Source: Gammaproteobacteria bacterium
GTDB taxonomy: Bacteria > Pseudomonadota > Gammaproteobacteria > Eutrophobiales > Eutrophobiaceae
DNA length: 64,000 bases
Assembly: GCA_965221695.1 (NCBI GenBank)
Contig: OZ244905.1
Location: 288,001-352,000, forward strand
Reading direction: 5' to 3'
Below, piece by piece: positions 10,576 through 64,000 of the stretch. The first letter of the stretch is position 1. Each line of letters starts with the position of its first letter. A program made the position numbers and the translations under genes. The notes beneath the pieces are model-generated. The model was not told the DNA's origin, searched no databases, and saw only the letters and a program-made list of their open reading frames with translations.

Positions 10576-10687
10576 AATTGTTCTCGTTCACTAATTGGAT
10601 TAACGATCTGGATACCGATAGCATATTATAGACTTTTGAATTAAACTGTCCAAATATTTTACAATCAATAAAACTCAGAGTAAGTCT

Positions 10688-11158
10688 ATGCAGCGGAAAC
10701 AACAAAAAACTACCTGGGTATTGGAAGATCTAGCCGGATTGACGGATTTTTCTGATCAGTTCAGAGCGTACTGTGTGCAACAGGACCTGGATGAGGGTAA
10801 AATATTCGAACTTGAACTGTCCCTGGAAGAGTTGATTGTCAACTCATTTAACCACGGCTACAAGGATCATGAACAAGGGACTGTCACCATAGAGGCCGAA
10901 GACAACAGCACGGAAGTCAGGATAAGTTTGCAAGACAATGCGCCACCTTTTGACTTATTCAGGGATGCGCCGCCCCCGCGACTGGGTGGAAAAACCCCGG
11001 AGCCTGAACCTGAGCCCAGCTCGAAAACGACCAAAGAGCTGGAACAGGAGAAAGAGGGTGGTCTCGGTATCCACTTGGTTAAAAGCCTTAATGACAAAGT
11101 CGAATACTATGGTTCCAAGGATGGAAACATCGTTGTCATTATTAAATCCAAATCCTGA
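10688..11158 (+). CDS. Anti-sigma factor Ser/Thr kinase (RsbW-like HATPase)
   Basis: EELIVNSFNHGY, DNAPPFD and GGLGIHLV. Confidence 0.9.
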   Translation: MQRKQQKTTWVLEDLAGLTDFSDQFRAYCVQQDLDEGKIFELELSLEELIVNSFNHGYKDHEQGTVTIEAEDNSTEVRISLQDNAPPFDLFRDAPPPRLGGKTPEPEPEPSSKTTKELEQEKEGGLGIHLVKSLNDKVEYYGSKDGNIVVIIKSKS

Positions 11159-11206
11159 CCAAGCAAAATCCTGACTGACAAAACCTGAATTGGGTTGACC
11201 CGGAGA

Positions 11207-14014
11207 TCAGTCCCGGGGTCCTGTGTATTGAAAGGACAGGATGGTGATATCATCGAATTGATCGGCGCGCCCGATAAACCTGAGCACGCTTCTGAAAACT
11301 GAGCTTGTCATATCCTTGGCGTTGTTAAACTCATTTTTTTTCAGCAACTCCTCCAACCGGGCATCGTCATAGAATTCATCTCTTATGTTCTGCGCCTCGG
11401 TGACGCCATCGGTATATAACAGCGCGATATCGCCCGCTTCCATATCAATGGATTGTTGCCTGAACTCAATGCCCTCGAATGTGCCTACCAATGGCCCCTG
11501 GACTTGTTCGAGACATATCAACTCTCCGTTGTTTTTCTTGATATACGGCAGGTTGTGCCCCGCGTTGGTTATCAGCAGCTTGCCGGTATTCAAGTCCATA
11601 ACGCCGATTATCAATGTGACAAACATGTTGCTGTCATTATTTAAGGACAGTTCATTGTTGACCCGGGTGATGATATCTTTTGTCTGCTTGGTTTGATCCA
11701 GCACTTTGTTGAGTAGGGCCTTGGTCACCGACATGAACAGAGATGCGGGTATGCCTTTGCCGGATACATCGCCCACACAGAAGTAGACCTTATTATCCTG
11801 CATAAGAGAAAAATCGTAAAAATCTCCCGAAACGCTTTGCGCTGGTTTCAGAAAAGCCTCCAGGGTGAACCCCTCGCCTTGGATCGGGTCCGGCAACATG
11901 TCCATCTGCACCTTCTGTCCGATCCTGAGATCCTGGGCCAGCTTGTCATTATGTGACTTGATTGTCTTGAAAGCGCCTTTCAGTTGCTCGCTGGCGCGGG
12001 TAACTTTATTCCGGCTCCAGATGAATATCAGGGTCAGCGTCAGGATCAAAACGGCGGTTAAACCGCTACCTGCCAGGGTTTGCCGGGTAAAGGCCTTGAA
12101 TGTCGCTAAAGCCTCTTCACTGTTAAACTCGTTGATAATGCCAAATCCGTAAACGTTGTTCCATCTCCAGTAGCCGACTACTTTTTGTCCCAGGTAATTG
12201 TCATACTCATCCAGTTCGCCGCCGCTGCCGCCGGCTATCACGCGCTGAACGGAAAGGGGCAGGTCCGCAGGTTTTGCAGCTTTTCCTCGCGCGCCGGCAG
12301 CCATCCCAATCACGGATTGTGTGTCCGCTTCCAACCAACCTTGATCCAGCATTTGTTCTTTCCAGCGGGGTTCGCTGATAAAACGTCCCGCCGCATCAAC
12401 CAGATAAATCTCGCCATAATTACCTGAATAGCCTCGTCTGAGGATTTTTGCCAGCGCTCGCTGTGGAGAGACCATGAAGAAAACCGCTCCCTTGTTTTCA
12501 TCCATCAAGGCCCCGAAAACAATATTTTGCGTGAGCAAATCATCAGTAGCTTCCCGGTTTGGGAATGCGATCATCATATTATGTTTCAGGAGATGTTCTC
12601 TGGCTTCCTCAGGCAGCGTAAAATAATTGCCGATGCGTTCTGCCCGGCTGCTGGATAGAACAATGCCGGTGTTATCGACGATCAGGTAGTCTTCGACGAT
12701 TTCAGGGTTGAGCATCGCGAAACTCTCGGGGAATTGCTGCAAACTCTGCGTTATCGCAATCTCATCTGCCTGTTCGACATTCGGACGAGCCAGGCCCGCC
12801 GCTTGCCGCTCCGGCGACTGAAGCGGGAATTCCTGCAATGCTTGCAAGGAAGCCAGAGACAGTTGCCGGCTGGCTGCTTGCGCAAATTTGACCGTATCCT
12901 GGCTGGTTTCATGCATCCAGTCCAACGTCGCGTTCTGGGTGGCATCCAGGGTAAATTTCAACTCGTCCCTGACCTTGGCGTAAGACTGAATCCTGTTTTC
13001 ACTCAGGAACCACCAGGAAAGCCCTAGAATCATGAAGGTGACCACCACCGCGGCAACAATGAGCGGCCAGCCCTGCCAGAAGTTCCTGAGAAAGAATTGC
13101 AGGGACGTAGCGTCGGCGGTTGTGTTTTCTTTTTCCTCTTCGGGGGCAGTTTTACTGGTTAACCGCCTTACCAGCGCCTCGCGCGCGGACGCTTTTTCTT
13201 CGGAAACGGGAGAAGTGTAACCACTGGCGGCCAGACGTTTAGCCAATCGGGATTTGCCGCTCTGGGCGTCTCTCTTTTTTATGGTAGCAGCGCCCAGTAT
13301 CAGTGAAAGCAGAGCAAGACCAGCGGCCAGGGCCAGAGTAATCATCAACACCACATTCAGACGCCATTGCTTGTCACGGTATCCGGCAATTTCTCCTGAA
13401 GTTCTGTAGTCCAGAGTTTCAAAAAACCTGTCCAGCGGTTTCATGATTTTTTCTTTGGCCAGGTGGTATTGCTCGCCATGGAGCAAGTTACGCGCCAGGC
13501 CCTGGTTGGGAACGCCTTTGGTTTGGTTATCAAAAAGACCCACCATGGCGTTCATGGCTCGGTTCTCGAGGTTCACGAGCTCGTTGGACTCGTCTTCCGT
13601 TTCCCGTAACAGCGCAAATTCTGTTTCCGTGAATTCGGCCTCTTTCATCAACTCCTTCAATGGTTTGGGAAAGGTGTCCGGGCGCGGTGGAATGCCTGTG
13701 GCAGAGATAAAATCCCAGTAGATATTATGATAATCTACCGGACGCGGGGCATCTCCGCTTCGTATTGCCAATATCTTGTCGAAATACTCCTTGAACTTTG
13801 GATTGCCAGTGACGGTATATGTCCTGGCCATACGGGTGAGATCATCAGAGCTTTGTCGCAGCTCATCAGCCAGCAGATACGATTGGTACCGTCGGTCCGC
13901 CGCAGCATCGATTTTTGCCTGATTTTCGATCACCTCCAGGTAGAGGAGCAGCGAAATCAGCATCAGCGTCATAATTGACGCGAAAATCATGAGTGTGTGT
14001 TTTTGTATATCCAT
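11207..14014 (-). CDS. Membrane sensor PP2C/SpoIIE phosphatase (RsbU-like)
   Basis: VSGDFYD, GDVSGKG, NAGHN, LYTDGVTEA and DDIT; four hydrophobic segments flank two extracytoplasmic regions. Confidence 0.9.
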   Translation of the reverse strand: MDIQKHTLMIFASIMTLMLISLLLYLEVIENQAKIDAAADRRYQSYLLADELRQSSDDLTRMARTYTVTGNPKFKEYFDKILAIRSGDAPRPVDYHNIYWDFISATGIPPRPDTFPKPLKELMKEAEFTETEFALLRETEDESNELVNLENRAMNAMVGLFDNQTKGVPNQGLARNLLHGEQYHLAKEKIMKPLDRFFETLDYRTSGEIAGYRDKQWRLNVVLMITLALAAGLALLSLILGAATIKKRDAQSGKSRLAKRLAASGYTSPVSEEKASAREALVRRLTSKTAPEEEKENTTADATSLQFFLRNFWQGWPLIVAAVVVTFMILGLSWWFLSENRIQSYAKVRDELKFTLDATQNATLDWMHETSQDTVKFAQAASRQLSLASLQALQEFPLQSPERQAAGLARPNVEQADEIAITQSLQQFPESFAMLNPEIVEDYLIVDNTGIVLSSSRAERIGNYFTLPEEAREHLLKHNMMIAFPNREATDDLLTQNIVFGALMDENKGAVFFMVSPQRALAKILRRGYSGNYGEIYLVDAAGRFISEPRWKEQMLDQGWLEADTQSVIGMAAGARGKAAKPADLPLSVQRVIAGGSGGELDEYDNYLGQKVVGYWRWNNVYGFGIINEFNSEEALATFKAFTRQTLAGSGLTAVLILTLTLIFIWSRNKVTRASEQLKGAFKTIKSHNDKLAQDLRIGQKVQMDMLPDPIQGEGFTLEAFLKPAQSVSGDFYDFSLMQDNKVYFCVGDVSGKGIPASLFMSVTKALLNKVLDQTKQTKDIITRVNNELSLNNDSNMFVTLIIGVMDLNTGKLLITNAGHNLPYIKKNNGELICLEQVQGPLVGTFEGIEFRQQSIDMEAGDIALLYTDGVTEAQNIRDEFYDDARLEELLKKNEFNNAKDMTSSVFRSVLRFIGRADQFDDITILSFQYTGPRD

Positions 14015-32281: not shown

Positions 32282-33649
32282 TTAGCTTGCCAGGCGCTGC
32301 CCGGTCATATGCAGGTATTCTTCCTCGAAGAAGAACTGCTCCGCGCCGAACGCCGGTTTCAGATCATCCAGCCAGGTTGCGCGCGCGTCGAATTCAGCAA
32401 AGAATGGTTGCTGTGTCCAGGTTTCATTGCGGCCTTGCAGAAAACGCAGTAGAAATACCTTTTGGTTGTTGATTTCTGTCACACCTTGCACCTGTACCTT
32501 GCCTGGCGAGGCGCTCATGGAAGGGCCGCGCACAGTACGGGCAAGCCCGGACACGGACTGGTATGCTTTTTGGTAAACTTCGAGCGCCCGAGCTAAAGGC
32601 GCTTCAAAGTAACGCCTGGCGCCGGTATCCCGTTCGACAAACATGTAATAAGGTATCATCCCAAGTCGCACCTGCTCCTGCCACATCCTCGCCCAGACTG
32701 CCGGGTCATTATTGATTTTGTCCAGCAACGGTCCCTGACAGCGGATTTCTGCCCCGGTGTTGCGAATTCTCTGGATGGCGCGTCGGGTCATATTGGATTC
32801 CAGCTCCCGCCAATGATTGAAATGAGCCATGAAGGCCACATGTTTGCCTGACCGCACTACTTTTTCCAGCAGGCGCAACAGATCATCGGCATCTTCATCG
32901 GTGACAAAACGATGCGGCCAATAGGTCAGGGCTTTGCTGCCTATTCGCAAAGTTTGAACATGCTGAAGTGAGTGATCAAACAGCGGTTCGATATAAAACT
33001 TCAGGTGATGGGTTTTCATCACCATCGGATCGCCTCCGGTAAGCAACAGGTCGGAGACTTCCCTATGCCGTTTCAGATACGCGTACAGTCCATCCGCTTC
33101 GCTGGCTGAGAAGCGGATTGATTTGTCTCCGACAAATTGCGCCCAGCGAAAACAGAAAGTGCAATAAGAATGGCAAACCTGGCCCTGTGATGGAAAAAAC
33201 AGGACGGTTTCGTGGTATTTGTGCTGCATGCCACCTAAAGTCTCACCATTAAGTATTGGCACGTTCAACTCCATTTGACCGGCAGGATGGGGATTGAGAT
33301 CCATGCGAATCTGAGTCGCCAAGGCATGGACTTTCTTGGGGTCGGCGTCGGAACTTAACAGTTTTGCCATTTGCTCAAAAGCTTCCGGTTCCAGCATATC
33401 TCTTTGGGGAAAAGTGAGCAGGAACATGGGATCAGTCTCGGCGCGATCCCAATCGATAAGCGTGTCAAGAACATAGCGATTGACCCGAAAGGGCAATACC
33501 TTTGCTACTACCTGGATATCATGGTGTAACTGTTCTGGAAGTTGGTAGAGTTGGCTTATCTGGTGAAGGTTTTTCTCTGTGTAGACTTTGAACTTTGTGC
33601 TCGGAACAAGTTCAGGTTTTCTGGCAAATGCAGCATAATTCAATGACAC
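32282..33649 (-). CDS. KamA-family radical SAM aminomutase (lysine 2,3-aminomutase-like)
   Basis: GMQHKY, CHSYCTFCFR, LLTGGDPM, HFNH, PYYMF and SASPGK. Confidence 0.85.
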   Translation of the reverse strand: MSLNYAAFARKPELVPSTKFKVYTEKNLHQISQLYQLPEQLHHDIQVVAKVLPFRVNRYVLDTLIDWDRAETDPMFLLTFPQRDMLEPEAFEQMAKLLSSDADPKKVHALATQIRMDLNPHPAGQMELNVPILNGETLGGMQHKYHETVLFFPSQGQVCHSYCTFCFRWAQFVGDKSIRFSASEADGLYAYLKRHREVSDLLLTGGDPMVMKTHHLKFYIEPLFDHSLQHVQTLRIGSKALTYWPHRFVTDEDADDLLRLLEKVVRSGKHVAFMAHFNHWRELESNMTRRAIQRIRNTGAEIRCQGPLLDKINNDPAVWARMWQEQVRLGMIPYYMFVERDTGARRYFEAPLARALEVYQKAYQSVSGLARTVRGPSMSASPGKVQVQGVTEINNQKVFLLRFLQGRNETWTQQPFFAEFDARATWLDDLKPAFGAEQFFFEEEYLHMTGQRLAS

Positions 33650-45900: not shown

Positions 45901-48294
45901 ATGAGTAACGGTCTTAAAATAATCTGTCTTGGCGGGGGGCCGGCATCGCTTTATTTCTCCCTGCTGATGAAAAAAGCAAATCCCGCTCATAATATTCAAG
46001 TCATTGAACGGGGTCCCTCCGATGCTACCTGGGGTTTCGGCGTGGTGTTTTCCGATGACACCTTACGTGGGTTTATGGAAGCCGACCCGCCTAGTTACAA
46101 ACGCATCGTGGAACAATTCGCCTACTGGGACCGGATAGAGACCCGCATACACGGCGCAAGCGTGGTGAGTGGCGGGCACGGATTCTGCGGATTGTCGCGG
46201 CTTAAGCTGTTGAATGCGTTGCATGATCGTTGTGAGGAACTGGGTGTAGCCCTGAAATTCAACACCGATATTACCGACCTGGCGCAGCTTGAGATCGATA
46301 AACACGATCTGGTCATAGCCGGAGACGGCATCACTTCTATGCTCCGCAGCGCCTATGCGGAGGCATTCGGCGTCAGCATGGACTGGCGGTCCAATCGTTT
46401 CTGCTGGCTGGCGACTACCTTGCCGTTGGATAATTTTACTTTTACTTTTCGGAAAAACGAACATGGCTGGTGGTGGACACACGGCTATCGCTACGAACAA
46501 GGCATGTCTACCTGGATCGTGGAATGCAACCGGCAGACCTGGTTGAACGCAGGAATGGATGCGTTCTCGGAACAAGACACCCGCGCTTATATCGAGGAGG
46601 TGTTCAGGGAAGACCTGCGCGGCCATCCTGTCATCACCAACCGCTCGGTCTGGCGCGAATTCCCTGTTGTGCGCAATGCCAGGCTCTACCACAGGAACAT
46701 CGTGTTGTTGGGTGATGCCGGGCGATCGGCCCATTTTTCTGTCGGTTCCGGCACCAAGCTTGCCATGGAGGACGCGATTACACTGGCCGGCATATTCCGG
46801 GATCAGGGCGATTGCGTCCCGTCCGCGCTAAAGGCATACCAGCAAATCCGTAAACCAGAGGCGGATCGTCTGCAACGCGCTGCGGTGACCAGTTTGCGCT
46901 GGTTTGAGAATGTGGAGCGCTATGCCGGCCAGGATCCATTGCAGTTCACATTCAACATGCTTGCCCGCTCCAAGCGGGTCACCTATGACAACCTGAGACT
47001 GCGTGATCCCTCATTTATTCGCGCCACAGACCAGTGGTTTGCAACCAATACTCAGGCGTTGACCGGTTTCGACGACATCGATACGGAAAACCCTGTTGCG
47101 CCGATGTTTCAACCGTTCAGAATAGGGCGGATGCGAGTGGAAAACCGCGTTCAGCTCTCCGCTATGTGCCAGTATTGCGCGTCAGACGGGGTGCCTGGTG
47201 AATGGCATTTTGTGCATTACGGCTCACGGGGAGTGGGCGGAGTCGGCCTGGTGAATACGGAAATGTTGTGCGTGTCGGCAGACGCTCGAATCACCCATGG
47301 CTGCGCCGGATTATGGAATGCGGAGCAAACAGAGCAATGGCGGCGTATCTGCGTGTTTATCCATCAGCACAGTAGGGCAAAAGTCTGCGCGCAAATCGGT
47401 CATGCCGGCCGCAAAGGCGCGACCTGCATCCCTTGGCAAGGCGGGATCGATCAACCACTGCCGTCTGAGGACTGGGAGATCATGGCGCCGTCGCCGTTGC
47501 CGTACCTGGAGCATAGCCGGGTCCCGCGGGAGATGACCGGCGCGGATATGGAGCGAGTGGAACAAGATTTCGTGAACGCAACGAAAAACGCGATTGCCGC
47601 CGGTTTTGATATGCTGGAGTTGCATATGGCGCACGGTTACCTGCTGTCGTCCTTCATTAGCCCTTGCGCCAACCTGCGCCGGGACGAACATGGCGGGGAC
47701 ATCAATGGCCGGGCTCGTTTCCCGTTGCGAATCTTGCGCGCCGTGCGCCGGATCTGGCCCGTAGAGCGTCCTTTGTCGGCGCGCATCTCAGCTACTGACT
47801 GGACTGGCGACGGGCTCTCCGAACAGGATCTGCTGACTTTCGTCCGATTGTTAAAAGACAACGGCGTCGACCTCATCAATGTCTCCACCGGACAGGTGGT
47901 CAGCTACGAAGAACCTGTCTATGGGCGAATGTACCAGGCTCCGTTTTCTGACCTGATCCGCAACGAGGTAGGGATTGCGACCGTGGTAGCCGGCAATATT
48001 ACCAATGCCGATCAAGTCAATACGCTGATCGCCGCAGGCAGAACCGACCTGGTGGCGCTGGCGCGCCCGCTTATGAACGAACCCCAGTTCGTGCTGAATG
48101 CTGCGGCCCGTTACGGATATCGCGCGCAGCGCTGGCCGGAACAGTACGCCGCGGGCAAATTCGCGGCCGAGTTGATTGCTGAGCGGGAGCGTAGCGAAGA
48201 GATCGAGCTGAAAATCAGCGCAAAACCCCCGAACCCACAGGAAATACTGGCCGTCGCGATCGCCAGGGGTGAAGTGTTTCTGGAGAAACCCTGA
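45901..48294 (+). CDS. Bifunctional 2-aminobenzoyl-CoA monooxygenase/reductase (AbmA) / salicylyl-CoA 5-hydroxylase family
   Basis: N-terminal FAD monooxygenase (GGGPA, WGFGVVFSD, GDA..AHFSVGSGTKLAMED) fused to an OYE barrel (QIGHAGRK, HMAHGYLL). Confidence 0.92.
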   Translation: MSNGLKIICLGGGPASLYFSLLMKKANPAHNIQVIERGPSDATWGFGVVFSDDTLRGFMEADPPSYKRIVEQFAYWDRIETRIHGASVVSGGHGFCGLSRLKLLNALHDRCEELGVALKFNTDITDLAQLEIDKHDLVIAGDGITSMLRSAYAEAFGVSMDWRSNRFCWLATTLPLDNFTFTFRKNEHGWWWTHGYRYEQGMSTWIVECNRQTWLNAGMDAFSEQDTRAYIEEVFREDLRGHPVITNRSVWREFPVVRNARLYHRNIVLLGDAGRSAHFSVGSGTKLAMEDAITLAGIFRDQGDCVPSALKAYQQIRKPEADRLQRAAVTSLRWFENVERYAGQDPLQFTFNMLARSKRVTYDNLRLRDPSFIRATDQWFATNTQALTGFDDIDTENPVAPMFQPFRIGRMRVENRVQLSAMCQYCASDGVPGEWHFVHYGSRGVGGVGLVNTEMLCVSADARITHGCAGLWNAEQTEQWRRICVFIHQHSRAKVCAQIGHAGRKGATCIPWQGGIDQPLPSEDWEIMAPSPLPYLEHSRVPREMTGADMERVEQDFVNATKNAIAAGFDMLELHMAHGYLLSSFISPCANLRRDEHGGDINGRARFPLRILRAVRRIWPVERPLSARISATDWTGDGLSEQDLLTFVRLLKDNGVDLINVSTGQVVSYEEPVYGRMYQAPFSDLIRNEVGIATVVAGNITNADQVNTLIAAGRTDLVALARPLMNEPQFVLNAAARYGYRAQRWPEQYAAGKFAAELIAERERSEEIELKISAKPPNPQEILAVAIARGEVFLEKP

Positions 48295-48570: not shown

Positions 48571-49884
48571 ATGAAACAATACTCAAATGACGAGTTGTCG
48601 GGCCTGGTAAAAGAAGATTCGGTTCATAAAAAAGTCTATACGGACCCTGAAATCTTTGACCTGGAAATGGAGCGCATCTGGAACAAGTCCTGGATATATG
48701 TGGGACATGACAGCCAGGTCAAACAGCCGGGCGATTATTTTGCCACAAGCATCGGCAAGCAACCGGTTGTCATGACCCGACACCGGGATGGCAAGGTGCA
48801 TGTGCTGTTCAACCGTTGCAGTCACAAAGGCGCTCAAGTTGTGGGAGACACTTGCGGAAACCTGCCGCAACTGCGTTGCAGTTACCATGGTTACGTGTTC
48901 GATACCGATGGGACATTGCTCCACATCCCCAGGGAAGAAGGCTATAGCGGGGTTGGATTTGGCAAAGGCAGCGCCGAATCCAACATGCAACAAGCGCCGC
49001 GTGTCGACAGTTATCACGGACTGGTGTTCGCCAGTCTGACAAGCAACGGGCCGGATTTACAAACATGGTTAAGCGGCGCCGCGGCATCCATCGATAACTT
49101 GGTGGAACGCTCTCCTGAAGGGCGCATTGAAATTGCCGGCGGTTGTTTCCGCTACCTGCATGATTCCAACTGGAAGATGTTTGTGGAAAACCTGAACGAC
49201 GCCATGCACCCCATGGTTGTGCACCAGTCTTCCAGCGGCACCGCAAAGCGAGTATTTGATGAACGCTTGAAAGAAGGCGATCCGGTCCCGTTTGAACTGG
49301 AGATGCTGGCGCCGTTTACTAACAACTACGAGTTCTTTGAAAAAATGGGACTCACGGCCTGGGATTACGGGCATAGCGTCACCGGTGGAAAATTCAGCAT
49401 TCACTCAGCCTATTCGCCCATACCCGGTTACATGGACGCTTTGATCGATAAATACGGCGAACAGAAGGCCAAGGAAATCCTCGCGGTAAACCGCCACAAT
49501 ACCGTTGTCTACCCCAGTTTTACCTTGAAAGGCGCCATCACTTCGATCCGTGTCGTCAAGCCGGTGGCGGTAGATAAGACGGTTATCGAGTCATGGGTGT
49601 TCAAGCAGGTGGGCGCTCCTGAGGAACTGTTCCGGCGATCCATCACCTATTGCAACCTGATCAATTCCCATGCCAATCTGGTTGGCCCGGATGACTATGA
49701 AGCCTATCACCGCTTGCAGCATGGCTTGCAGACAGAAGACGGCAATGAATGGGTGAGTCAGCATCGTTATCTAGGCAAGGACGAAGTGGATGAGGATGGC
49801 GCCCGGCACGCGGCGGGCACCTCCGATATGGTCTTTCGCCACCAGTTCCAGACCTGGAAGAACTACATGGTTGGCCTTCAATGA
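48571..49884 (+). CDS. Rieske ring-hydroxylating oxygenase alpha subunit, IadD (indole-3-acetate oxygenase)-like
   Basis: CSHKG...CSYHG; NWKMFVENLNDAMHPMVVH; RSPEG.IEIAGGC, FSIHS.Y and RHNTV segments resemble my recollection of Variovorax IadD (not aligned). Confidence 0.88.
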   Translation: MKQYSNDELSGLVKEDSVHKKVYTDPEIFDLEMERIWNKSWIYVGHDSQVKQPGDYFATSIGKQPVVMTRHRDGKVHVLFNRCSHKGAQVVGDTCGNLPQLRCSYHGYVFDTDGTLLHIPREEGYSGVGFGKGSAESNMQQAPRVDSYHGLVFASLTSNGPDLQTWLSGAAASIDNLVERSPEGRIEIAGGCFRYLHDSNWKMFVENLNDAMHPMVVHQSSSGTAKRVFDERLKEGDPVPFELEMLAPFTNNYEFFEKMGLTAWDYGHSVTGGKFSIHSAYSPIPGYMDALIDKYGEQKAKEILAVNRHNTVVYPSFTLKGAITSIRVVKPVAVDKTVIESWVFKQVGAPEELFRRSITYCNLINSHANLVGPDDYEAYHRLQHGLQTEDGNEWVSQHRYLGKDEVDEDGARHAAGTSDMVFRHQFQTWKNYMVGLQ

Positions 49885-55632: not shown

Positions 55633-56364
55633 ATGATAAAAAAAAATCAAGTAGTGGTCGTTACCGGCGGCAACCGGGGTATCGGCGCGGATATTACCCG
55701 GCGCTTTCTCAACAGCGGCTACCTCGTCGTCAATATATCCAGGCAGCCCCCTGAGTTTGCGCATGAACGCCTGATCAATTATACCGCTGACCTGGCGAAT
55801 CAACAGGCAACACGGGAAGTCGGCATGGAGATAGCGAAACAGCATGAGGTTACGAACTTCATTCACAATGCCGGCGTCATCCGTCCCGATTTGCTTGAAA
55901 ATGTCAGTCTTGAAGACCTGGATTACTTAACCCAACTGCACTTGGGCAGCGCGATCACTTTGGCGCAACAGTTTGTGCCGGCAATGCGCGCGGCGCAGTT
56001 CGGCAGGATCATCCTCATCTCATCCCGCGGCGTGCTGGGCTTGGTGACTCGTACCAATTATGCGGCTACCAAGGCCGGACAGATTGGCATCACGCGCACC
56101 TGGGCATTGGAATTGGCAAAAGACGGGATTACGGTGAATTGTGTGGCGCCCGGGCCGATTGTGACGGATATGTTCCATGAGCTGGTTCCGGACGACAGCG
56201 AACAAAAGACACAGATCGCGGAGAGCGTTCCGGTCAAACGCTTGGGTACTCCTCAAGACATCGGGCGCGTGGTTGAATTTTTGTGCGCGCCAGACAGCGG
56301 CTTCATTACCGGACAGACCTGGTATATCTGTGGCGGCGCCAGCCTGGGCTCGCTGGCTTTGTGA
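55633..56364 (+). CDS. Short-chain dehydrogenase/reductase
   Basis: TGGNRGIG, NAG, YAATK and TRTWALELA. Confidence 0.9.
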   Translation: MIKKNQVVVVTGGNRGIGADITRRFLNSGYLVVNISRQPPEFAHERLINYTADLANQQATREVGMEIAKQHEVTNFIHNAGVIRPDLLENVSLEDLDYLTQLHLGSAITLAQQFVPAMRAAQFGRIILISSRGVLGLVTRTNYAATKAGQIGITRTWALELAKDGITVNCVAPGPIVTDMFHELVPDDSEQKTQIAESVPVKRLGTPQDIGRVVEFLCAPDSGFITGQTWYICGGASLGSLAL

Positions 56365-56445
56365 TATTGGATAATTCTTATGCTCGCATATCCCTTGTTG
56401 GGCGCGCGGGCGTTAGCCAGCCATACGATTCCAGAGAAACTCAAG

Positions 56446-57690
56446 TCAAATTATGACCAATATCAGATAAAACGCCGCGAATAATGTCAGCGCCCAGACG
56501 CAGACCACACTGTAGCGAGTCAGTCCTGGCGCTGGCTGCATCTTTGCCGGCACATCTTCGGAATGCATGGCGCGGTGAATTAGCCAGGCCAGCGCTGGCG
56601 CAGTCAGAAACGCCAGGGTAGTGGCGATATCGATCAGGGTTTTGAATGATTGAAGGAAAAACATGATGATGGACAGGGAAATCAGGATCATTCCCAGGAT
56701 AGTAGCCAGATAAATCCTGAAGCGCAGCTTCTCCGGCAATGCTTCGTTCCTGAAACAATTAACCAGAGCGCATACAGTGCGTGGGTAGCCATCGTGTATG
56801 ACCAGTACGGTGGATAGCATGACTGCGAATGCGGCAATGGCAATAATTGGCCTGGTCCATTGTCCCAAGAGCGAAGAATAAATGTTGACGAGTTGCGCTG
56901 AAAACTCGGCCGGAGAAGATGAAAACTGCAGGTCGGAACCATGCATCACCGCAGCCCCCAGCATCAGAAAGCAGAGCGCGGTCACGATAGTCGAGCAATA
57001 CCCGACGTGATAATCCAGTTTTACCTCTGCGGCGGACAGCTTGTTCTGTTTGTTCTTTTCCAGGACCCACAACGATTGCCAGATGCAGGTTTCGAATGGC
57101 GCCGGCATAAAGCCGATCAATGCCGCCAGAAACAAAATCGATGACCTGTTGAATACGTCAGGTGTGAGAATATCGGCCTGCCCCCAGTCGATCAAGGGCA
57201 TGGAGAGTGACGTTGCCGCCAGGGTAGAGACAAACAGGATCAGGAGCAGGATTTTTGTAATACTGTCCAACCAGTGGTACTGGCCGGCTATCAGGCAGAT
57301 GCCGGAAAAAGCACAGATACAAGCAGCCACCACGGCGATAGGCAGGTTCAGGTTAAAACTGATCACTGCCAGACCGCTCGTCACCAACACCACTGCTGCA
57401 AACCCGGTAAACATCACACAAAATATCACCAGCGCGCACAGCCATACGGCCCAGCTTCCCTGACGGCGAAAACCGGTCAGCAAGTGTTGCCCGGTGGCGT
57501 AAGCGTATTCATGTCCGAAACGGAAGATCGGGTATTTCATAGCAAAAGCCAGCAGGATGAACAACAACAAGTCCATCCCGTAAAGGGCGCCGGCGCGGGT
57601 TGCCTGCACCAGGTGGGATACCCCGATAGCCGCGGCAGCCATCAACAGTCCGGGACCAAGAACTGTGAACAGCCTGTATTTCCATTTCAT
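56446..57690 (-). CDS. NRAMP-like/APC-fold membrane transporter
   Basis: LGPGLLMAAAAIGVSHLVQATRAGA.YG; about 11 TM helices; start set at MKWK because the upstream in-frame extension runs through a MITE remnant. Confidence 0.8.
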   Translation of the reverse strand: MKWKYRLFTVLGPGLLMAAAAIGVSHLVQATRAGALYGMDLLLFILLAFAMKYPIFRFGHEYAYATGQHLLTGFRRQGSWAVWLCALVIFCVMFTGFAAVVLVTSGLAVISFNLNLPIAVVAACICAFSGICLIAGQYHWLDSITKILLLILFVSTLAATSLSMPLIDWGQADILTPDVFNRSSILFLAALIGFMPAPFETCIWQSLWVLEKNKQNKLSAAEVKLDYHVGYCSTIVTALCFLMLGAAVMHGSDLQFSSSPAEFSAQLVNIYSSLLGQWTRPIIAIAAFAVMLSTVLVIHDGYPRTVCALVNCFRNEALPEKLRFRIYLATILGMILISLSIIMFFLQSFKTLIDIATTLAFLTAPALAWLIHRAMHSEDVPAKMQPAPGLTRYSVVCVWALTLFAAFYLILVII

Positions 57691-57755
57691 CAGAGCATGA
57701 TAACCACGGTTTGCGCATTTGACCACCATAACAACGCCTCCCCGCCTGGATACGC

Positions 57756-57793
57756 GCTCTGACAAGTCCAGAATGGATTTATCAGATCTTTCC
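57756..57793 (-). repeat. Left-end fragment of the MITE family
   Basis: Reverse complement GGAAAGATCTGATAAATCCATTCTGGACTTGTCAGAGC matches the first hairpin of copies B and C. Confidence 0.75.
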
Positions 57794-57920
57794 AAAATTT
57801 ACACGGCAAAAAACGTATGCCTCTATCTTGACCTGCTTCTCAAGGTTTGGGATAAAGCTCTTGAAACAAAACCGGATTTGATGGATGATGGCAAGATGGT
57901 AAAAAACACTTAGGTTTCCC

Positions 57921-59165
57921 ATGGATGCTATTCCGATTCCCTGGAGTAAGATACGTATTTATTTTTTGCTTCTCCTCTTTCTGACAGGTTGTGACGCGCA
58001 ACAACCGGCGGATGAATCTGCGCCGGTTGCTATCTCATCCGGCGAGAAGGATACGTATGTGGACACCAGCAAGGGACCTCTGTCCAAGGACATTTTTGGT
58101 AAGGTTGCCAGTTTGCCGGAAACGCCGCATCCCCACTGGGTCTGGATTTATGATATCGCCGCCAGTTCAATGCCGGACGGGCGCGCCTATCTGTATGATG
58201 GAAACAGCGCACGGTTGCTGGGCATGCTCAATACCGGATATTCCTTCAATGCGTTGAATATTCCCAGCCATTACCGGGAAGTCTATTCGGCTGAAACATA
58301 TTATGCCAGAACAACCCGCGGGGCACGCGCCGATGTGGTCAGTATTTACGACCCGTTCACGCTATTACCGGTAACTGAAATAGCGATCCCTGCAAAACGC
58401 GTGTCCACCCTGCCCAGGCTGGCAGATTCTGCATTGACCGACGATGATCGTTTTATGGCTGTTTTCAACCTGACGCCGGCGGCGTCATTGAGCATTGTGG
58501 ATCTGACGCAGCGCCGATTTGCCGGAGAAGTTATGATCCCCGGCTGCGCAATGGCTTATGGCGCCGGCGACAGACGTTTCTTCGCACTGTGCAGCGACGG
58601 GACGCTGCTGCTGATCGACCTGACAGAAGAGGGCGGGCAGGCCACATCGCAAAGAAGCGAGCCTTTTTTCAACGCGCTTGAGGATCCGATCCTGGAGACC
58701 GGCGCCCGTCAAGGCAACGTTTGGTATTTCATGTCGGTTCTGGGAAAAGTCCATCCGGTGGAAATCGCTGCCGGCGGACCGGATTTTCCCGATACCTGGT
58801 GGTACCTGGATGAGCAGGATCGAGACAACAACTGGCGCATAGGAGGAATACAGGCCGTCGCCCTGCATAAGGCGACTGAACAGCTCTACCTGTTGATGCA
58901 TCAGGGTGATTTCTATTCCTACGAAGCGCCCGGACCGGAAATCTGGGTTTATGATCTGGCCACCCGCGCGCGCCTGAAAAAAATCAGGACCAGACATCCC
59001 AGCATATCGATCGCAGTGAGTCAGGATGACAGTCCGCTGCTATACACGATAACCGAAGATTTGAAGAGATTGGAAATCTATGACGCAATTAACGGTGAAT
59101 ACCTGCGCTCAGCCGGAGAACTGGGTATCACGCCGTTTTTAATTGAGCCGTTGCCGTTGCTATAG
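57921..59165 (+). CDS. TTQ amine dehydrogenase large (beta-propeller) subunit, MauB/AauB-like, with lipobox
   Basis: YSAETYYAR.TRG.R.DVV, FNLTPA.S, PGC, CSDG, WRIGG.Q, LLMH, EIWVYD and VSQD..PLLY; N-terminal LTGC lipobox. Confidence 0.88.
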   Translation: MDAIPIPWSKIRIYFLLLLFLTGCDAQQPADESAPVAISSGEKDTYVDTSKGPLSKDIFGKVASLPETPHPHWVWIYDIAASSMPDGRAYLYDGNSARLLGMLNTGYSFNALNIPSHYREVYSAETYYARTTRGARADVVSIYDPFTLLPVTEIAIPAKRVSTLPRLADSALTDDDRFMAVFNLTPAASLSIVDLTQRRFAGEVMIPGCAMAYGAGDRRFFALCSDGTLLLIDLTEEGGQATSQRSEPFFNALEDPILETGARQGNVWYFMSVLGKVHPVEIAAGGPDFPDTWWYLDEQDRDNNWRIGGIQAVALHKATEQLYLLMHQGDFYSYEAPGPEIWVYDLATRARLKKIRTRHPSISIAVSQDDSPLLYTITEDLKRLEIYDAINGEYLRSAGELGITPFLIEPLPLL

Positions 59166-59221
59166 AGCAAGATTCAAACATTCATATCAATTTATTCCGC
59201 CGATGATTGTGAGGGTAAAAC

Positions 59222-59740
59222 ATGAGGTTTTTTGATCGCTGGTTCCAAGATAGGAGCCGCTCCCTGGCGCTCCGCACATCGCGCCGGAGCTTTTTGCAGA
59301 AAGCCGGTATCCTGTTGGTTGGCGCCGGCGCTGTGCCGTTGCTGCCCGTCGCCAGGGCGAATACGGCGCCGGAGGACAGCTCGATTGCCGGACCTGAAGG
59401 CGATCCGGAAAAATGCGAGTACTGGCGCAACTGCGGTATGGATGGTTTTCTTTGCTCTTGTTGCGGCGGCAGCCACATCAGTTGCCCGCCTGGCACAGAG
59501 ATGGCGCCCATGACCTGGGTAGGCACCTGTAAAAACCCTGCGGACGGGCGCGACTATATTATTGCCTACAATGACTGCTGCGGCAAAAGCACCTGCAATC
59601 GCTGCATGTGCAATCGCAACGAGGGCGACCTGCCTAATTATTTCCCATCCAAGAGCAATGATATCAACTGGTGTATGGGCTCCAGTAACAATGTCTATCA
59701 CTGTACGACCACTATATTGCTGGGATTGGCGGTGAGCTGA
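59222..59740 (+). CDS. TTQ amine dehydrogenase small subunit, AauA/MauA-like
   Basis: Tat motif SRRSFL; C.YWR.C..DGFLCSCCGG, W in TWVGTC, Y.DCCG and W in DINWC (both TTQ tryptophans present). Confidence 0.93.
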   Translation: MRFFDRWFQDRSRSLALRTSRRSFLQKAGILLVGAGAVPLLPVARANTAPEDSSIAGPEGDPEKCEYWRNCGMDGFLCSCCGGSHISCPPGTEMAPMTWVGTCKNPADGRDYIIAYNDCCGKSTCNRCMCNRNEGDLPNYFPSKSNDINWCMGSSNNVYHCTTTILLGLAVS

Positions 59741-59755
59741 CCTTAGGTTGGTCCG

Positions 59756-61075
59756 ATGGGCATATCTATCTGCAATGATGAGATAGCTTCACTGGTTCAG
59801 CCGGACCGGGTGCATAAACGGGTTTACACGGACCCGGCCATATTCGACCTGGAGATGGAACGCATATGGGGCAATGCCTGGATCTATATCGGCCACGAGA
59901 GCCAGGTGAAACGCCCTGGAGACTTCTTTACCACTACGCTGGGCAAACAATCGGTTATCGTCACCCGGCATAGCGATAACCGGATCTATGTGCTGTATAA
60001 CCGCTGCGCTCATAAGGGCGCTCAGTTGATCGCGCAACCCTGCGGTCACGCGCGGCAACTACGTTGCGCGTATCATGGCTATGTATTCGATACGGCCGGC
60101 GTCCTCACGCATATCCCCCGGGAGGAAGGATACAAAGATACGGACTTCGCGCGTGCTACGACTCTGACCGGCATCCGCCAAGTAGCCAGGGTCGAGACGT
60201 ATCGCGGCTTTATTTTTGCCAACCAGGCGCCGCATGGAGCCGATTTGGCAAGCTGGTTGGGACTGGCCACCACTTCCCTTGATAATGCCGTCGACAGGTC
60301 GCCTACTGGCGAGATCGAGATGACCGGCGGTGTATTGCGTTATCTGCATGACGCCAACTGGAAGATCCTGTTGGAAAACGTATCTGACAATATGCATCCT
60401 GCGGTCACTCACCAGTCTGCGTGGCAACCGGCAAAACGTCTCGCCAGTGAATATCCGGAAGATCAGAAGCCTTTGCCGCTTGCCATGCTGGAACCTTTCG
60501 GTTCAAGTTACGAGTTTTTCGACAAGATAGCAATGACCACTTGCGGCAACGGCCACACCTGGTCCGGCGGCAATGCAACAATCCATATCGGTTATCCGCG
60601 TGAATCGAAATACGTGCGCGACCTGGTGGCAGTCCACGGAGAGGAGCAGACCAAGCGCATACTTTCCATGCAACGGCAGAATACCATCATCTATCCCAGT
60701 ATCGCGTTCAAGAGCGCATTACAGACGATCCGGGTTTATCGCCCCATAGCTGTCGACAAGACAATACAGGAGACCTGGACGTACAAGCTGGGCGGGGTAT
60801 CAGACGATGTGTTGCATACTTCGACGCTTTACAACCAGTTGATCTTCTCGCCGTTTTCCATAGCCGGCCATGATGATTATGAAGCTTACCACCGCATCCA
60901 GCACGGACTGCAGGCAGACGCTTCCGAGTGGGTGAGTCAGCACCGCCATTATGGCCGCGACCAGCGCAATGATGACGGGACCGTACAGGCACGCGGCACC
61001 AGCGATATCGTATTCCGACACGAGTTTGAAGCCTGGAAGAACTACATGACATTATCGCATGTGGAAGCCTCCTGA
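59756..61075 (+). CDS. Second IadD-like Rieske oxygenase alpha subunit
   Basis: CAHKG...CAYHG; ENVSDNMHPAVTH; clear paralog of 48571-49884. Confidence 0.9.
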   Translation: MGISICNDEIASLVQPDRVHKRVYTDPAIFDLEMERIWGNAWIYIGHESQVKRPGDFFTTTLGKQSVIVTRHSDNRIYVLYNRCAHKGAQLIAQPCGHARQLRCAYHGYVFDTAGVLTHIPREEGYKDTDFARATTLTGIRQVARVETYRGFIFANQAPHGADLASWLGLATTSLDNAVDRSPTGEIEMTGGVLRYLHDANWKILLENVSDNMHPAVTHQSAWQPAKRLASEYPEDQKPLPLAMLEPFGSSYEFFDKIAMTTCGNGHTWSGGNATIHIGYPRESKYVRDLVAVHGEEQTKRILSMQRQNTIIYPSIAFKSALQTIRVYRPIAVDKTIQETWTYKLGGVSDDVLHTSTLYNQLIFSPFSIAGHDDYEAYHRIQHGLQADASEWVSQHRHYGRDQRNDDGTVQARGTSDIVFRHEFEAWKNYMTLSHVEAS

Positions 61076-62579
61076 AAGAATAAAGCACAAACCGCATCCT
61101 GGACAAAGCCCGACAGCAGAGGAAGCCGGTCGAGCTTTGATGTTCAAGCCAATCAAACTCGGGGCTCTCACCCTGGAGCAGCGCACCTGGGTGCCGGCGA
61201 TGGTGCCATGGCGCTCCAACGAGGACGGTTTCGTCACCGATGACGTGCTGGACTGGTATCAGCGTTTCGCTCAAGGACAACCAGGGGCCATCGTCATCGA
61301 GGCAACTGGCATTCGGGATATTCCCAGCGGGCCGTTGTTGCGTATCGGCGATGATCGATTTATACCGGGATTGAGGGAGCTGGTGGATGTAGTGAAATCA
61401 GCAAGCAACGGAAAAACCCGCCTGTTGATACAAGTGATCGACTTTCTGACTATACGCCGACGGCCGGATCCGGCTAAATATTTCTCCCGTTTTCTGGTTA
61501 TTACAGACCGTCACAGGGCAATACTGAACGCCCATGATTGGCCGGAAGAACGCGTTAGGACACACTTGGCCGAGTTGCAGGATGAGGAGCTTGACGGGAT
61601 TTTAACTGAAAGGGAACTGGAGACGCTGCGTATGGGATATCGGGAGCGGGTCACTGACCTGCATCTGCCTCATATCAGAAACCTACCCCAGACAATGCCT
61701 GAGCTGTTTGCCCAGGCCGCGCGGCGCGCGATGGAAGCAGGAATCGATGGCGTAGAACTCCATTACGCCCACGCCTACACAATGGCGTCATTTCTGTCCG
61801 CAACCAATTCCCGTAATGACGGTTACGGCGGCAACCGGGAACAACGCGCGCGCCTGCCCCTGAAAACCTTCCGACATGTGCGCAATATGGTTGGCTCCGA
61901 TTATTGTGTGGGCTGTCGCTTTCTTTCCGATGAATGCATCGAAGGAGGCAGTGACGTCGACGATGCCGTGTATTACGCGGTGGAATTTGCGCGGGCAGGC
62001 ATGGATTTTATTTCTCTCTCCCGGGGCGGCAAATTCGACGATGCCAAACAACCGCAAATTGGTTGGGCTGCCTATCCTTATACGGGGCGCAGCGGCTATG
62101 AATGCATGCCTGGCTACATCTCCGATAAAAAAGGTCCTTTTGGCAGAAACATTGAGCCGGTTGCCCGCATCAAACTAGCCATCAATAACGCGGGATATGC
62201 CACTCCCGTAGTCGTCATCGGCGGTTTGCACGGATTTCAACAGGCTGAGACGCTACTGCGCGAGGGAAAGGCGGATATTATCGGCGCCGCCCGTCAGAGC
62301 CTTGCCGACCCTGACTGGTATCTCAAGCTCAAGTTAGGCAAGGGCGACCAGATAAGAGTGTGCGAATATACCAATTACTGCGAAGGGCTGGATACAAAAC
62401 ACAAGCAGGTCACCTGCCAGTTATGGGACCGGTTGTATTTTAATGAGCCAGGGGTTAAATTATCGATTGACGGGCGCCGCCGGCTGCTCGCTCCTGAATG
62501 GGCAGACCTGCCTGATGCGCTTCCGAGCGCCCGGCAAGCGTCCGCAAAAGACGCGCCGGCAAAGACATTCGGCAAATAG
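61059..62579 (+). CDS. NADH:flavin oxidoreductase (Old Yellow Enzyme family)
   Basis: GVELHYAHAY, DGYGG..E.R.R, ARQSLADPDW and a C-terminal Cys cluster CEYTNYC...C. Confidence 0.88.
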   Translation: MWKPPERIKHKPHPGQSPTAEEAGRALMFKPIKLGALTLEQRTWVPAMVPWRSNEDGFVTDDVLDWYQRFAQGQPGAIVIEATGIRDIPSGPLLRIGDDRFIPGLRELVDVVKSASNGKTRLLIQVIDFLTIRRRPDPAKYFSRFLVITDRHRAILNAHDWPEERVRTHLAELQDEELDGILTERELETLRMGYRERVTDLHLPHIRNLPQTMPELFAQAARRAMEAGIDGVELHYAHAYTMASFLSATNSRNDGYGGNREQRARLPLKTFRHVRNMVGSDYCVGCRFLSDECIEGGSDVDDAVYYAVEFARAGMDFISLSRGGKFDDAKQPQIGWAAYPYTGRSGYECMPGYISDKKGPFGRNIEPVARIKLAINNAGYATPVVVIGGLHGFQQAETLLREGKADIIGAARQSLADPDWYLKLKLGKGDQIRVCEYTNYCEGLDTKHKQVTCQLWDRLYFNEPGVKLSIDGRRRLLAPEWADLPDALPSARQASAKDAPAKTFGK

Positions 62580-62589
62580 ATACCTGTGG

Positions 62590-63024
62590 TTAGCCCATCT
62601 GGCGTTCCTTTATTTCGTCCAGGGTTTTACAATCAATACACAGGGTTGCCGTCGGTCTTGCTTCAAGGCGTTGAATGCCGATCTCCCCACCGCAAACTTC
62701 GCAATAGCCGTAATCGCCTGCATCCAACATCATCAGCGATTCATTGATTTTTTTGATAAGTTTTCGCTCGCGATCACGCGTCCTTAGTTCGAGCGCAAAC
62801 TCCTCTTCCTGGGTGGCCCGATCGTTGGGATCGGGAAAGTTTGAGGCTTCGTCCTGCATATGATGCACGGTTCGCTCCACTTCCTCCATCAGAGCCTGCT
62901 TCCAATCAGTCAACATTTTGCGAAAGCGTTCAACCTGGGCTGGATTCATGTACTCTTCCGCCACAGTCTTGCCGCTCGTCTGTTTTGTCTTGGAGGATTT
63001 TTTCCCCGTTGCGACTTTTTTCAT
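62590..63024 (-). CDS. dksA: RNA polymerase-binding transcription factor DksA
   Basis: DPNDRA, LELRTRDRERKL and C4 zinc finger CEVC...CIDC. Confidence 0.97.
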   Translation of the reverse strand: MKKVATGKKSSKTKQTSGKTVAEEYMNPAQVERFRKMLTDWKQALMEEVERTVHHMQDEASNFPDPNDRATQEEEFALELRTRDRERKLIKKINESLMMLDAGDYGYCEVCGGEIGIQRLEARPTATLCIDCKTLDEIKERQMG

Positions 63025-63398
63025 CTTAGATTTACACCGAAATGCATTTCAACACATGCCCTTGGACGATACCACAAAGGTTCTGGGAAACTCTGAATCA
63101 AGCTATTTCCGCATTTGGCGCGGTACAGACTGCAGGCATATCAGAGCTTCTTCGTCATGTTCATTTGATATCATTCTGTATTTGATGTCAATGGAAATGC
63201 AAGCGCGTTCCGGCGACAGGCATTTTCCAATGTCAATGTTAGAGCCATGATTTGCATCTTGCCAGGGTGTCTGCGCGCAATGCGTATCCTATTCAAGGCA
63301 GCGTGGCCATTTCAGGGTAGCTGCCCTGTAATGTGGTTATGCGCTCTCCTCTGTATGCCACTTGTTTCCTGGCGCGTGAAAAGGTATGGTGATAACTC

Positions 63399-64000
63399 AT
63401 GCGGCTTCGCAAAATCAAACTCGCCGGCTTCAAGTCCTTTGTTGATCCTGTCACGCTGCAGGTATCCGATAATCTGGTCGGCATAGTCGGGCCGAACGGT
63501 TGTGGCAAGTCCAATATTATCGACGCAGTCATCTGGGTGATGGGTGAGAGTTCCGCCAAGCATCTGCGCGGTAATTCGTTGACGGACGTAATATTTAACG
63601 GATCCGGCGCCAGACACCCGGTCGGCCAGGCTTCGGTGGAGCTTGTGTTTGATAATTCTGACGGCAAACTGGGCGGTCCCTATGCCGGATATTCTGAGGT
63701 TTCCATCAAGCGGCAGTTGAGCAGGGATGCGATATCCACATATTTTCTCAATGGCACACGTTGCCGGCGCAAGGATATTCAGAGCATCTTCCTCGGAACC
63801 GGGATCGGGCCGCGCAGCTATTCGATCATTGAGCAGGGTGTGATATCCAGGTTGATCGAAGCCCGGCCTGAGGATTTGCGTGTATTTCTAGAAGAGGCGG
63901 CAGGCATATCAAAATTCAGAGAACGCCGTCGTGAAACAGAAAACCGGATCAAGCACACGCGCGAGAATATCAGCAGACTGACGGATATTCTGGAAGAACT
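63399..64000 (+). CDS. smc: Chromosome segregation protein SMC (5' part; runs off the window)
   Basis: Translated by hand: [17 protein letters not shown]...[28 protein letters not shown]...YSIIEQG. Confidence 0.96.

Follow-up and report, generated by a model that had tools for sequence, protein, structure and literature searches.

Can two structural genes supply a working amine dehydrogenase when no gene for its cofactor or for its electron acceptor is found beside them? The question is raised by two adjacent genes in a stretch of 64,000 nucleotides, called here the window, of a gammaproteobacterial genome (assembly GCA_965221695.1, contig OZ244905.1, positions 288,001 to 352,000). They code for the large and the small subunit of an enzyme of the tryptophan tryptophylquinone (TTQ) type. 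To our knowledge, all characterised TTQ dehydrogenases are soluble periplasmic proteins, served by dedicated maturation genes and by a dedicated copper-protein partner. Methylamine dehydrogenase (MADH) is soluble, has its maturation genes in its own cluster and uses amicyanin as partner. Aromatic amine dehydrogenase (AADH) is also soluble, its genes are ordered aauB-E-D-A, and azurin is the acceptor. We know of no mauG gene in the aau cluster; literature searches on the aauA/aauB genes, and on AADH in connection with azurin and MauG, turned up nothing relevant.

Judged from its sequence, the pair in the window encodes a genuine and intact TTQ-dependent enzyme of the MADH/AADH amine dehydrogenase family. 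The enzyme looks functional, and the locus represents a well-populated clade of uncultured gammaproteobacteria (at least 44 clusters at 90% identity). In this clade the large subunit is a predicted lipoprotein, and only the two structural genes are kept together. The absence of helper genes is typical of the wider family; only the membrane anchor is unusual. The reading favoured here, which we hold to be fairly probable, is that of a functional AADH-like primary-amine dehydrogenase tethered to a membrane on the periplasmic side, and matured and re-oxidised by factors encoded elsewhere. Parts of this reading are inferred: that the Cys is lipidated, which membrane is involved, that maturation occurs in trans, and what the acceptor and the substrate are. 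The locus offers a natural system in which to ask what maturation factors TTQ cannot do without, and a membrane tether would change the wiring of the enzyme to the respiratory chain.

Subunit genes and the TTQ site

The large (heavy, alpha) subunit (P0001; 57921..59165, 414 aa) and the small (light, beta) subunit (P0002; 59222..59740, 172 aa), which holds the TTQ precursor tryptophans, are encoded on the plus strand. The former matches the family PF06433 (Me-amine-dh_H) at E 3.6e-50 over profile positions 18-339 of 343, the latter the family PF02975 (Me-amine-dh_L) at E 1.7e-49 over positions 2-112 of 113; chance matches would score nowhere near these values. Solved MADH and AADH heavy chains match the large subunit at about E 1e-46 (MADH 4e-46, AADH ~2e-45). 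The large-subunit model obtained with AlphaFold (AF2) from 44 sequences is an all-beta propeller (mean predicted local distance difference test score, pLDDT, 85.4; predicted template modelling score, pTM, 0.81). The genes are separated by 56 bp, and a GAGGG ribosome-binding site lies 7-11 nt before the small-subunit start at 59222. A Rieske gene follows after 15 bp. Both distances agree with those given in an earlier note on this DNA, made from the letters alone.

The small subunit starts with a twin-arginine translocation (Tat) signal peptide (59222..59359). This features the motif T-S-R-R-S-F-L-Q-K from residue 19 onward (S-R-R-S-F-L at residues 20-25), followed by the hydrophobic stretch AGILLVGAGAVPLLPVARA and by ARA; cleavage is likely at A-R-A, residues 44-46. 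The catalytic core, D74 to W150 (59441..59671), was placed by alignment with the light chains of solved AADH and MADH. It opens with DGFLCSCCGG (residues 74-83, 59441-59470), identical to the solved AADH beta chain. W99 (59516-59518) aligns with the quinone-bearing Trp, D118 (59573-59575) with the catalytic base, and W150 in the N149-W150 dipeptide (59666-59671) with the cross-linked Trp, so that W99 and W150 line up with the TTQ tryptophan pair of solved AADH and MADH small subunits. Y159 and T162 lie just downstream of W150, and the core has 14 Cys. R21, R22, D74, W99, D118, W150, Y159 and 11 cysteines are invariant in 44/44 aligned small subunits. The Tat signal, the two TTQ tryptophans and the DGFLCSCCGG motif noticed in the earlier note are all present. 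In MADH numbering, D74, W99, D118, N149, W150, Y159 and T162 correspond to Asp32, Trp57, Asp76, Ile107, Trp108, Tyr119 and Thr122; an offset of 6 brings this numbering into register with the 2bbk_L alignment.

The two genes were compared with their orthologues in four species (L001-L004). At synonymous divergence (dS) of 0.77-1.3, the ratio of nonsynonymous to synonymous changes (dN/dS) measures 0.036-0.057 for the small and 0.12-0.16 for the large subunit; the Rieske gene stands at 0.07-0.09. Strong purifying selection thus acts on the pair (dN/dS 0.04-0.16), which argues that it is not a relic. A decaying locus, making neither TTQ nor active enzyme, had been considered in the earlier note, and would fit with the absence of accessory genes and of a redox partner in cis. 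This is extremely improbable, as both open reading frames (ORFs) are full length relative to the profiles, the catalytic and TTQ residues and the 14 Cys are intact, selection is evident at dS near 1 against four species, and the chromosomal position of the pair is conserved in five genomes.

The AADH of Alcaligenes faecalis (2agl, 2i0r) and the MADH of Paracoccus denitrificans, P. versutus and Methylobacterium (2bbk, 3l4m, 3c75) belong to the same two-subunit TTQ family as the window enzyme. MADH shares with it the fold, the TTQ Trp pair, the Asp32, Asp76, Thr122 and Tyr119 positions, and a Tat-type signal on the small subunit. The alignment of the window small subunit to the AADH beta chain is gapless (E 2.5e-45, 156 bits, ~54% identity over 110 residues), that to MADH light chains (about 1e-37, 129 bits, ~49% identity) is interrupted by one 2-residue gap; identities were counted by hand from printed alignments. 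The window small subunit and AADH have in common DGFLCSCCGG, 14 Cys and an Asn ahead of the second TTQ Trp, and both lack a 2-residue insertion. MADH light chains feature instead DGNICDCSGG, 12 Cys, Ile107, and the 2-residue insertion. Two observations pull away from AADH: Y159 is MADH-like (Tyr119), and replaces a Phe of AADH, and the large subunit is equidistant from MADH and AADH, at about 1e-46 each. On these alignments the small subunit appears somewhat nearer to AADH than to MADH, and an orthologue of neither. The AADH likeness pointed out in the earlier note is borne out to this extent by the bit scores, the 14-Cys pattern and the Asn before the second TTQ Trp. The AADH-like Cys signature (C81 and C125 invariant) is common to all 44 environmental small subunits aligned, and therefore does not single out AADH orthologues.

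The pair might alternatively be an ordinary MADH, used for methylotrophy or to obtain nitrogen from methylamine, with the accessory genes mauFEDCJGLMN at another locus. The best NCBIfam models for the two proteins are indeed the MADH large- and small-subunit equivalogs, homologues are named 'methylamine dehydrogenase light/heavy chain' in their sources, and Y159 matches Tyr119 of MADH. The scores are however below the equivalog cutoffs, 183.1 bits against 454.45 for the large (TIGR02658) and 164.8 against 196.85 for the small subunit (TIGR02659), and the 14-Cys pattern, DGFLCSCCGG and Asn149 are common to AADH, not MADH. Moreover, amicyanin, other cupredoxins and C1-assimilation genes were not found among the scanned ORFs of the window, in which the neighbours are aromatic and acyl-CoA catabolic genes. 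An ordinary MADH is hence regarded as unlikely, and the substrate is probably not methylamine. Genes of this type are automatically named 'methylamine dehydrogenase', and have been taken as evidence for methylotrophy in surveys of metagenome-assembled genomes (MAGs), for example in PMC8262859. Inferring methylotrophy from such annotations may be unsafe, because both window subunits score below the MADH cutoffs and the AADH-like Cys pattern occurs in 44/44 small subunits.

A sub-clade of small subunits (P0013, P0016, P0018, P0022) lacks the Cys pair found in the window protein as C80/C128. His, Glu or Tyr and Tyr, Lys, Ala or Arg take its place, and an Ile precedes the second TTQ Trp, as in MADH.

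Predicted lipoprotein signal and tether of the large subunit

The N-terminus of the large subunit reads MDAIPIPWSKIRIYFLLLLFLTGC, followed by DAQQ, and is made of a charged n-region, a hydrophobic core and the tetrapeptide LTGC. K10 and R12 precede the hydrophobic stretch IYFLLLLF; the putative lipobox L21-T22-G23-C24 resides at 57981-57992, and Asp25 comes after the Cys. This agrees with the general build of a type II signal peptide, in which a positively charged n-region and a hydrophobic h-region precede a lipobox of the pattern [LVI][ASTVI][GAS]C. Sequence, conservation and an AF2 helix at residues 8-19 concur in delimiting a lipoprotein (type II) signal peptide at 57921..57992. Cys24 would be the lipidated first residue of the mature protein, with Asp25 at position +2. 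A wrong start codon, taken into account in the earlier note, would leave the box in place: the start at 57921 is the first after the upstream in-frame stop, and the sole other in-frame start ahead of the lipobox is a TTG at codon 16, from which the lipobox is retained too. In the four orthologues L-A-G-C followed by Asp is found at the position of the window LTGC. The box seen in the earlier note is thereby extended to L[AT]GC-Asp in all five large subunits.

Among the matches listed in a collection of 5.8 billion proteins, 120 relatives of the large subunit were analysed. Fifty representatives at least 51% identical, the window protein included, make up the window clade. A lipobox was recognised by the explicit rule in 41/50 and by eye in three more (P0150, P0155, P0160); the other six sequences begin inside the mature protein. 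The box is therefore found in 44/44 clade representatives having an N-terminus, as against 4/70 more distant homologues, the rest of which carry ordinary A-x-A signal peptides and no Cys. The box could be a look-alike, the large subunit being cut by signal peptidase I and soluble as in MADH and AADH; a few clade members have unusual boxes (LWGC, LEGC, PAGC). This is quite unlikely, because the Cys is kept in all 44 clade N-termini and relatives outside the clade show classical A-x-A sites in its place. The 40 residues after the Cys argue in the same direction, being variable (dN/dS 0.22-0.48) and predicted to be disordered, as usual in lipoprotein tethers.

The putative tether (57993..58121) measures about 43 residues, is enriched in Pro, Ala, Ser and acidic side chains, and connects the Cys to the beta-propeller body (58122..59165). 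In the AF2 model pLDDT is <50 for residues 21-49, 52-54 and 59-61. Residues 73-410 are almost all beta strand, and pLDDT means of 10-residue blocks vary from 72 to 98 from residue 71 on. Alignments to solved heavy chains begin at residues 68-72, the MADH heavy chain covering residues 68-408. Relative to the four orthologues, the first 70 codons have dN/dS of 0.22-0.48, which indicates that the N-terminal region is translated and constrained. A cleaved signal, a lipid-bearing Cys, a flexible tether and a folded domain would make up the usual build of a lipoprotein, as predicted from sequence and model.

An Asp at +2 marks lipoproteins for retention in the inner membrane in Escherichia coli, a rule established for enterobacteria only. 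By analogy, Asp25 suggests that the large subunit stays in the inner membrane. The 41 rule-scored lipoboxes of the clade have Asp (18), Glu (18), Gly (3), Asn (1) or Ser (1) at +2; that Glu is as frequent as Asp speaks against this assignment. In the favoured reading the large subunit would leave the cytoplasm by the Sec route, receive its lipid at Cys24, be cut by signal peptidase II and hang from the membrane by the disordered tether; the acidic +2 residue might keep it in the inner membrane. The conserved lipobox and tether set the window enzyme apart from AADH. Literature searches found no relevant paper linking, by title or abstract, tryptophylquinone enzymes with lipoproteins, nothing on an MADH heavy chain as a lipoprotein, and no paper in which a lipobox occurs together with mauB. 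As far as these searches reach, the membrane anchor is a real peculiarity of the locus, undescribed in the literature found.

Maturation genes and electron acceptor

A Pfam scan of 75 ORFs of the window revealed no member of the MauE, CCP_MauG, cupredoxin (amicyanin/azurin) or cytochrome c families. Hidden Markov models (HMMs) were built from relatives for MauE, MauD, a 165-aa cytochrome c, a di-haem cytochrome c, a TonB-dependent receptor, TetR and aldehyde dehydrogenase. The first four have no match among window ORFs of at least 50 aa. The haem-binding motif CxxCH occurs in one of these ORFs only, a 446-aa Rieske-type hydroxylase (1305-2645). Thus neither a maturation gene nor an electron acceptor was found in the 64-kb window, and neither mauE, mauD, mauG nor a redox partner within ±10 kb of the four orthologous loci, in keeping with the earlier note. 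These absences weigh against the favoured reading. They imply that the factors are either encoded elsewhere or not needed.

How exceptional the layout is can be judged from relatives. A scan of one genome per species yielded 604 small-subunit relatives, and the best 79 of the 604 loci were analysed (40/79 measure at least 20 kb, 64/79 at least 10 kb). ORFs were called, the subunits located with phmmer, neighbours clustered, and clusters named by Pfam. The window and the 79 loci contain 87 small-subunit genes; six have no large-subunit gene on the available piece, which leaves 81 pairs. In 23/81, including the window and the partial locus L005, the two genes are adjacent, with no mauE/mauD between them. 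In the other 58 an insert is found, the distance from the end of the large to the end of the small gene being 1,101-1,898 bp, and 55/58 inserts match the MauE and/or MauD HMM. The mau order is large subunit, mauE, mauD, small subunit, and the window has a bare 56-bp gap in place of the middle genes; it differs from AADH likewise in lacking a mauE/mauD-like pair between the subunit genes, and a redox partner nearby.

A maximum-likelihood tree of 77 full-length large subunits was made by a quick search under LG+G4. On this tree the adjacent state requires 8 changes, of which at least 6 are forced by starred (well-supported) branches; shuffled labels require 19.3 on average. The window and L001-L004 form a clade of adjacent pairs only (support 100*), joined next by L062 (96*) and then by L006 (88). 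The intervening mauE/mauD have thus been lost repeatedly, a common event among these relatives, and the two-gene layout, presented as exceptional in the earlier note, is not so.

The same holds for the missing mauG. In none of the 79 related loci is a MauG-family gene found within ±10 kb, so that its absence in cis is the norm for the environmental family. ORFs of at least 220 aa with at least two CxxCH motifs were screened as MauG candidates in these loci. Only three were found: a di-haem cytochrome c in L013, a cytochrome c fusion (Cytochrome_CBB3) in L022, and in L016 a 1261-aa ORF with a weak lactonase match only. None is MauG-like. In relatives the small-subunit gene is commonly followed by one for a small c-type cytochrome (a cluster of 57 members from 47 loci). 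Outside the window clade, such a cytochrome gene is found at most 3 kb downstream of 13/17 adjacent pairs.

Adjacent pairs reside in several other uncultured bacteria (L062, L006, L013, L019, L021, L025, L039, L044, L053, L057-L059, L072, L076, L077). As in the window, mauE/mauD are missing between the subunit genes, and mauG within ±10 kb. In contrast to the window, these relatives have ordinary signal peptides and no lipobox, and mauE/mauD are found nearby in five loci. The latter correspond to 5/21 sources with an adjacent pair (L013, L053, L058, L076, L077), in which mauE/mauD lie elsewhere within the locus, usually in a second complete cluster. The MAG of L062, the nearest adjacent-pair relative outside the window clade, also has a contig (L014) in which the order is mauE-mauD-small subunit-cytochrome c.

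Various arrangements have been observed in these loci. The order in L053:8742-12123 is large subunit, small subunit, mauE, mauD, cytochrome c. In L039:2649-6709 and L044:2765-6735 two adjacent pairs occur in tandem, followed by one cytochrome c. In L013, L058 and L077 an adjacent pair flanks a complete cluster whose subunit genes enclose mauE and mauD.

MADH requires mauE/mauD and MauG, according to two sources (bioRxiv 10.64898/2026.03.05.709764; PMC11951088). Its TTQ is completed by MauG after export, and the first hydroxylation is apparently autocatalytic, as described in PMC7876137 and PMC11951088. The preprint also shows MauE to be able to take the place of DsbB in E. coli, and ascribes, by argument, a DsbA-like role to MauD (bioRxiv 10.64898/2026.03.05.709764). 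General Dsb proteins are plausible stand-ins for MauE/MauD because of this exchange. Maturation in trans is plausible, based on this swap, on the five sources with mauE/mauD elsewhere, and on the MAG of L062 and L014. In the favoured reading the small subunit would be exported via Tat, and its disulfides and TTQ (W99, W150) would be made in the periplasm by factors encoded elsewhere. Candidates are general Dsb proteins or a mauE/mauD pair at another locus of the genome, together with a haem protein of the MauG/bacterial cytochrome c peroxidase family, also encoded elsewhere. The assembled enzyme would convert R-CH2-NH2 to aldehyde and ammonium, with D118 as catalytic base, and would hand its electrons to a redox protein, periplasmic or membrane-bound, whose gene lies elsewhere.

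The two genes that follow the pair suggest another route. The first (P0003; 59756..61075, plus strand; PF00355 and PF00848) encodes the alpha subunit of a Rieske non-haem-iron oxygenase (RHO), the second (P0004; 61059..62579, plus strand; PF00724 at E 3.6e-38, in two stretches) an FMN oxidoreductase of the old yellow enzyme (OYE) family. Their products might modify the small-subunit Trp in the cytoplasm before Tat export, and TTQ would then form with no need of MauG. Tat can carry pre-folded cargo, and is the route used by the small subunit; the order large subunit, small subunit, Rieske, OYE, with very short gaps, recurs in the window, L001, L003, L004 and partly in L005, and no MauG-family gene was found in the window or in the 79 related loci. 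A precedent is QhpG, a cytoplasmic flavoprotein that dihydroxylates a Trp for the cysteine tryptophylquinone (CTQ) precursor (PMC7876137).

Several facts contradict this route. L002 keeps an intact pair with neither the Rieske nor the OYE gene. The Rieske protein is 52% identical to a catabolic RHO alpha encoded about 10 kb upstream (48571-49884), which has its own beta subunit, and its simplest reading, from sequence, is that of a catabolic paralogue of the latter. The Rieske/OYE link is confined to the window clade, whereas MauG-less loci are general, and TTQ formation in MADH takes place after export (PMC7876137). The quinohaemoprotein amine dehydrogenase (QHNDH) served by QhpG is, as the window enzyme, a periplasmic primary-amine quinoprotein with a protein-derived tryptophylquinone. 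It differs in having unrelated subunits, CTQ rather than TTQ, and thioether rather than disulfide cross-links, and in being matured in the cytoplasm by QhpD, QhpG and QhpE (PMC7876137); none of these was met in the window scans. TTQ made by the Rieske and OYE proteins is regarded as highly improbable. The combined picture, of TTQ made in this way and of an inner-membrane-anchored enzyme feeding its electrons directly into a respiratory component of the membrane, no dedicated soluble carrier being involved, is given a very slim chance. The Rieske protein and the OYE were also considered as electron acceptors and rejected: no signal peptide is seen at either N-terminus, and the former is a classical RHO alpha paralogue.

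Neighbouring genes and substrate

The Rieske and OYE genes are associated genes, and the Rieske protein is outside the enzyme proper. Among NCBIfam models it matches HcaE and BenA best, with 184 bits, a score that falls far short of their cutoffs. The Rieske gene is probably co-transcribed with the subunit genes, and its product is probably cytoplasmic. The region 56300-63400 contains 8 promoter-like sites, against 6.9±2.6 in shuffled sequences, and 9 terminator-like sites, against 6.7±2.7. As the scan does no better than shuffles, the operon structure is deduced from spacing only. The real start of the OYE is probably M28 at 61140, rather than the ATG overlapping the Rieske gene. An unmatched insertion is found in the OYE between the two PF00724 stretches, at about residues 130-210.

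Downstream of the pair the order small subunit, Rieske, OYE, dksA (minus strand), smc is found in the window, L001, L003 and L004, and in part in L005. In L005, too, a Rieske gene follows that for the small subunit. L002 has dksA 42 bp after the intact small-subunit gene. Upstream, the window and L002 share an operon-like run of genes for RHO alpha and beta subunits, an acyl-CoA ligase, a thiolase-like protein, a DUF35 protein and a short-chain dehydrogenase/reductase (SDR). To these the window adds genes for an ActP-type symporter and for a protein resembling salicylyl-CoA 5-hydroxylase, and a divergent Nramp-like gene. The Nramp-like transporter gene (56446-57795, minus strand) lies between the SDR and the large-subunit genes; in L002 (8601-8710) 108 bp separate the SDR gene from the large-subunit gene behind it, and in L001 a DDE transposase is present at a distance of a few kb upstream. 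The dehydrogenase is therefore flanked by a variable region upstream, and by a fixed one on the dksA-smc side. An FAD monooxygenase/OYE fusion of 797 aa is encoded at 45901-48294 (plus strand), and scores 1031.7 bits, against a cutoff of 1078, with the model 'bifunctional salicylyl-CoA 5-hydroxylase/oxidoreductase'.

The genomic context hints weakly at an aromatic or larger amine, the aldehyde or acid product of which would enter CoA-dependent catabolism. This is opposed by the orthologous loci, since L001 and L003 have upstream a luciferase-like monooxygenase and a hydrolase instead, and L004 an FAD-binding-domain protein (PF01565) and a GDSL lipase. The upstream genes differ among orthologues, and substrate inference from context is weak for this reason. 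The earlier note had described the enzyme as dedicated to an aryl-alkylamine. The slight AADH likeness of the small subunit and the aromatic and CoA-related neighbours point weakly to an aryl-alkyl or other larger primary amine; dedication to such a substrate is an overstatement.

A family of TonB-dependent outer-membrane receptors is encoded beside TTQ dehydrogenase genes in 26/80 sources, as assessed by HMM, and is absent from the window. Examples are found at L001:4204-6486 (minus strand) and L004:3718-6150 (plus strand). The recurrence of the receptor may denote a scarce or bulky amine substrate.

Other features lie elsewhere in the window. A partner-switching module spans 10234-14014, and is made by a STAS-domain gene (10234-10575, minus strand), a HATPase_c_2 kinase-like gene (10688-11158, plus strand) and a gene for a 935-aa protein with a SpoIIE/PP2C phosphatase domain (11207-14014, minus strand). 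A 455-aa ORF at 32282-33649 (minus strand) has a sub-threshold match to radical-SAM proteins (E 8e-4, 20 bits against 29.5), and matches no other family.

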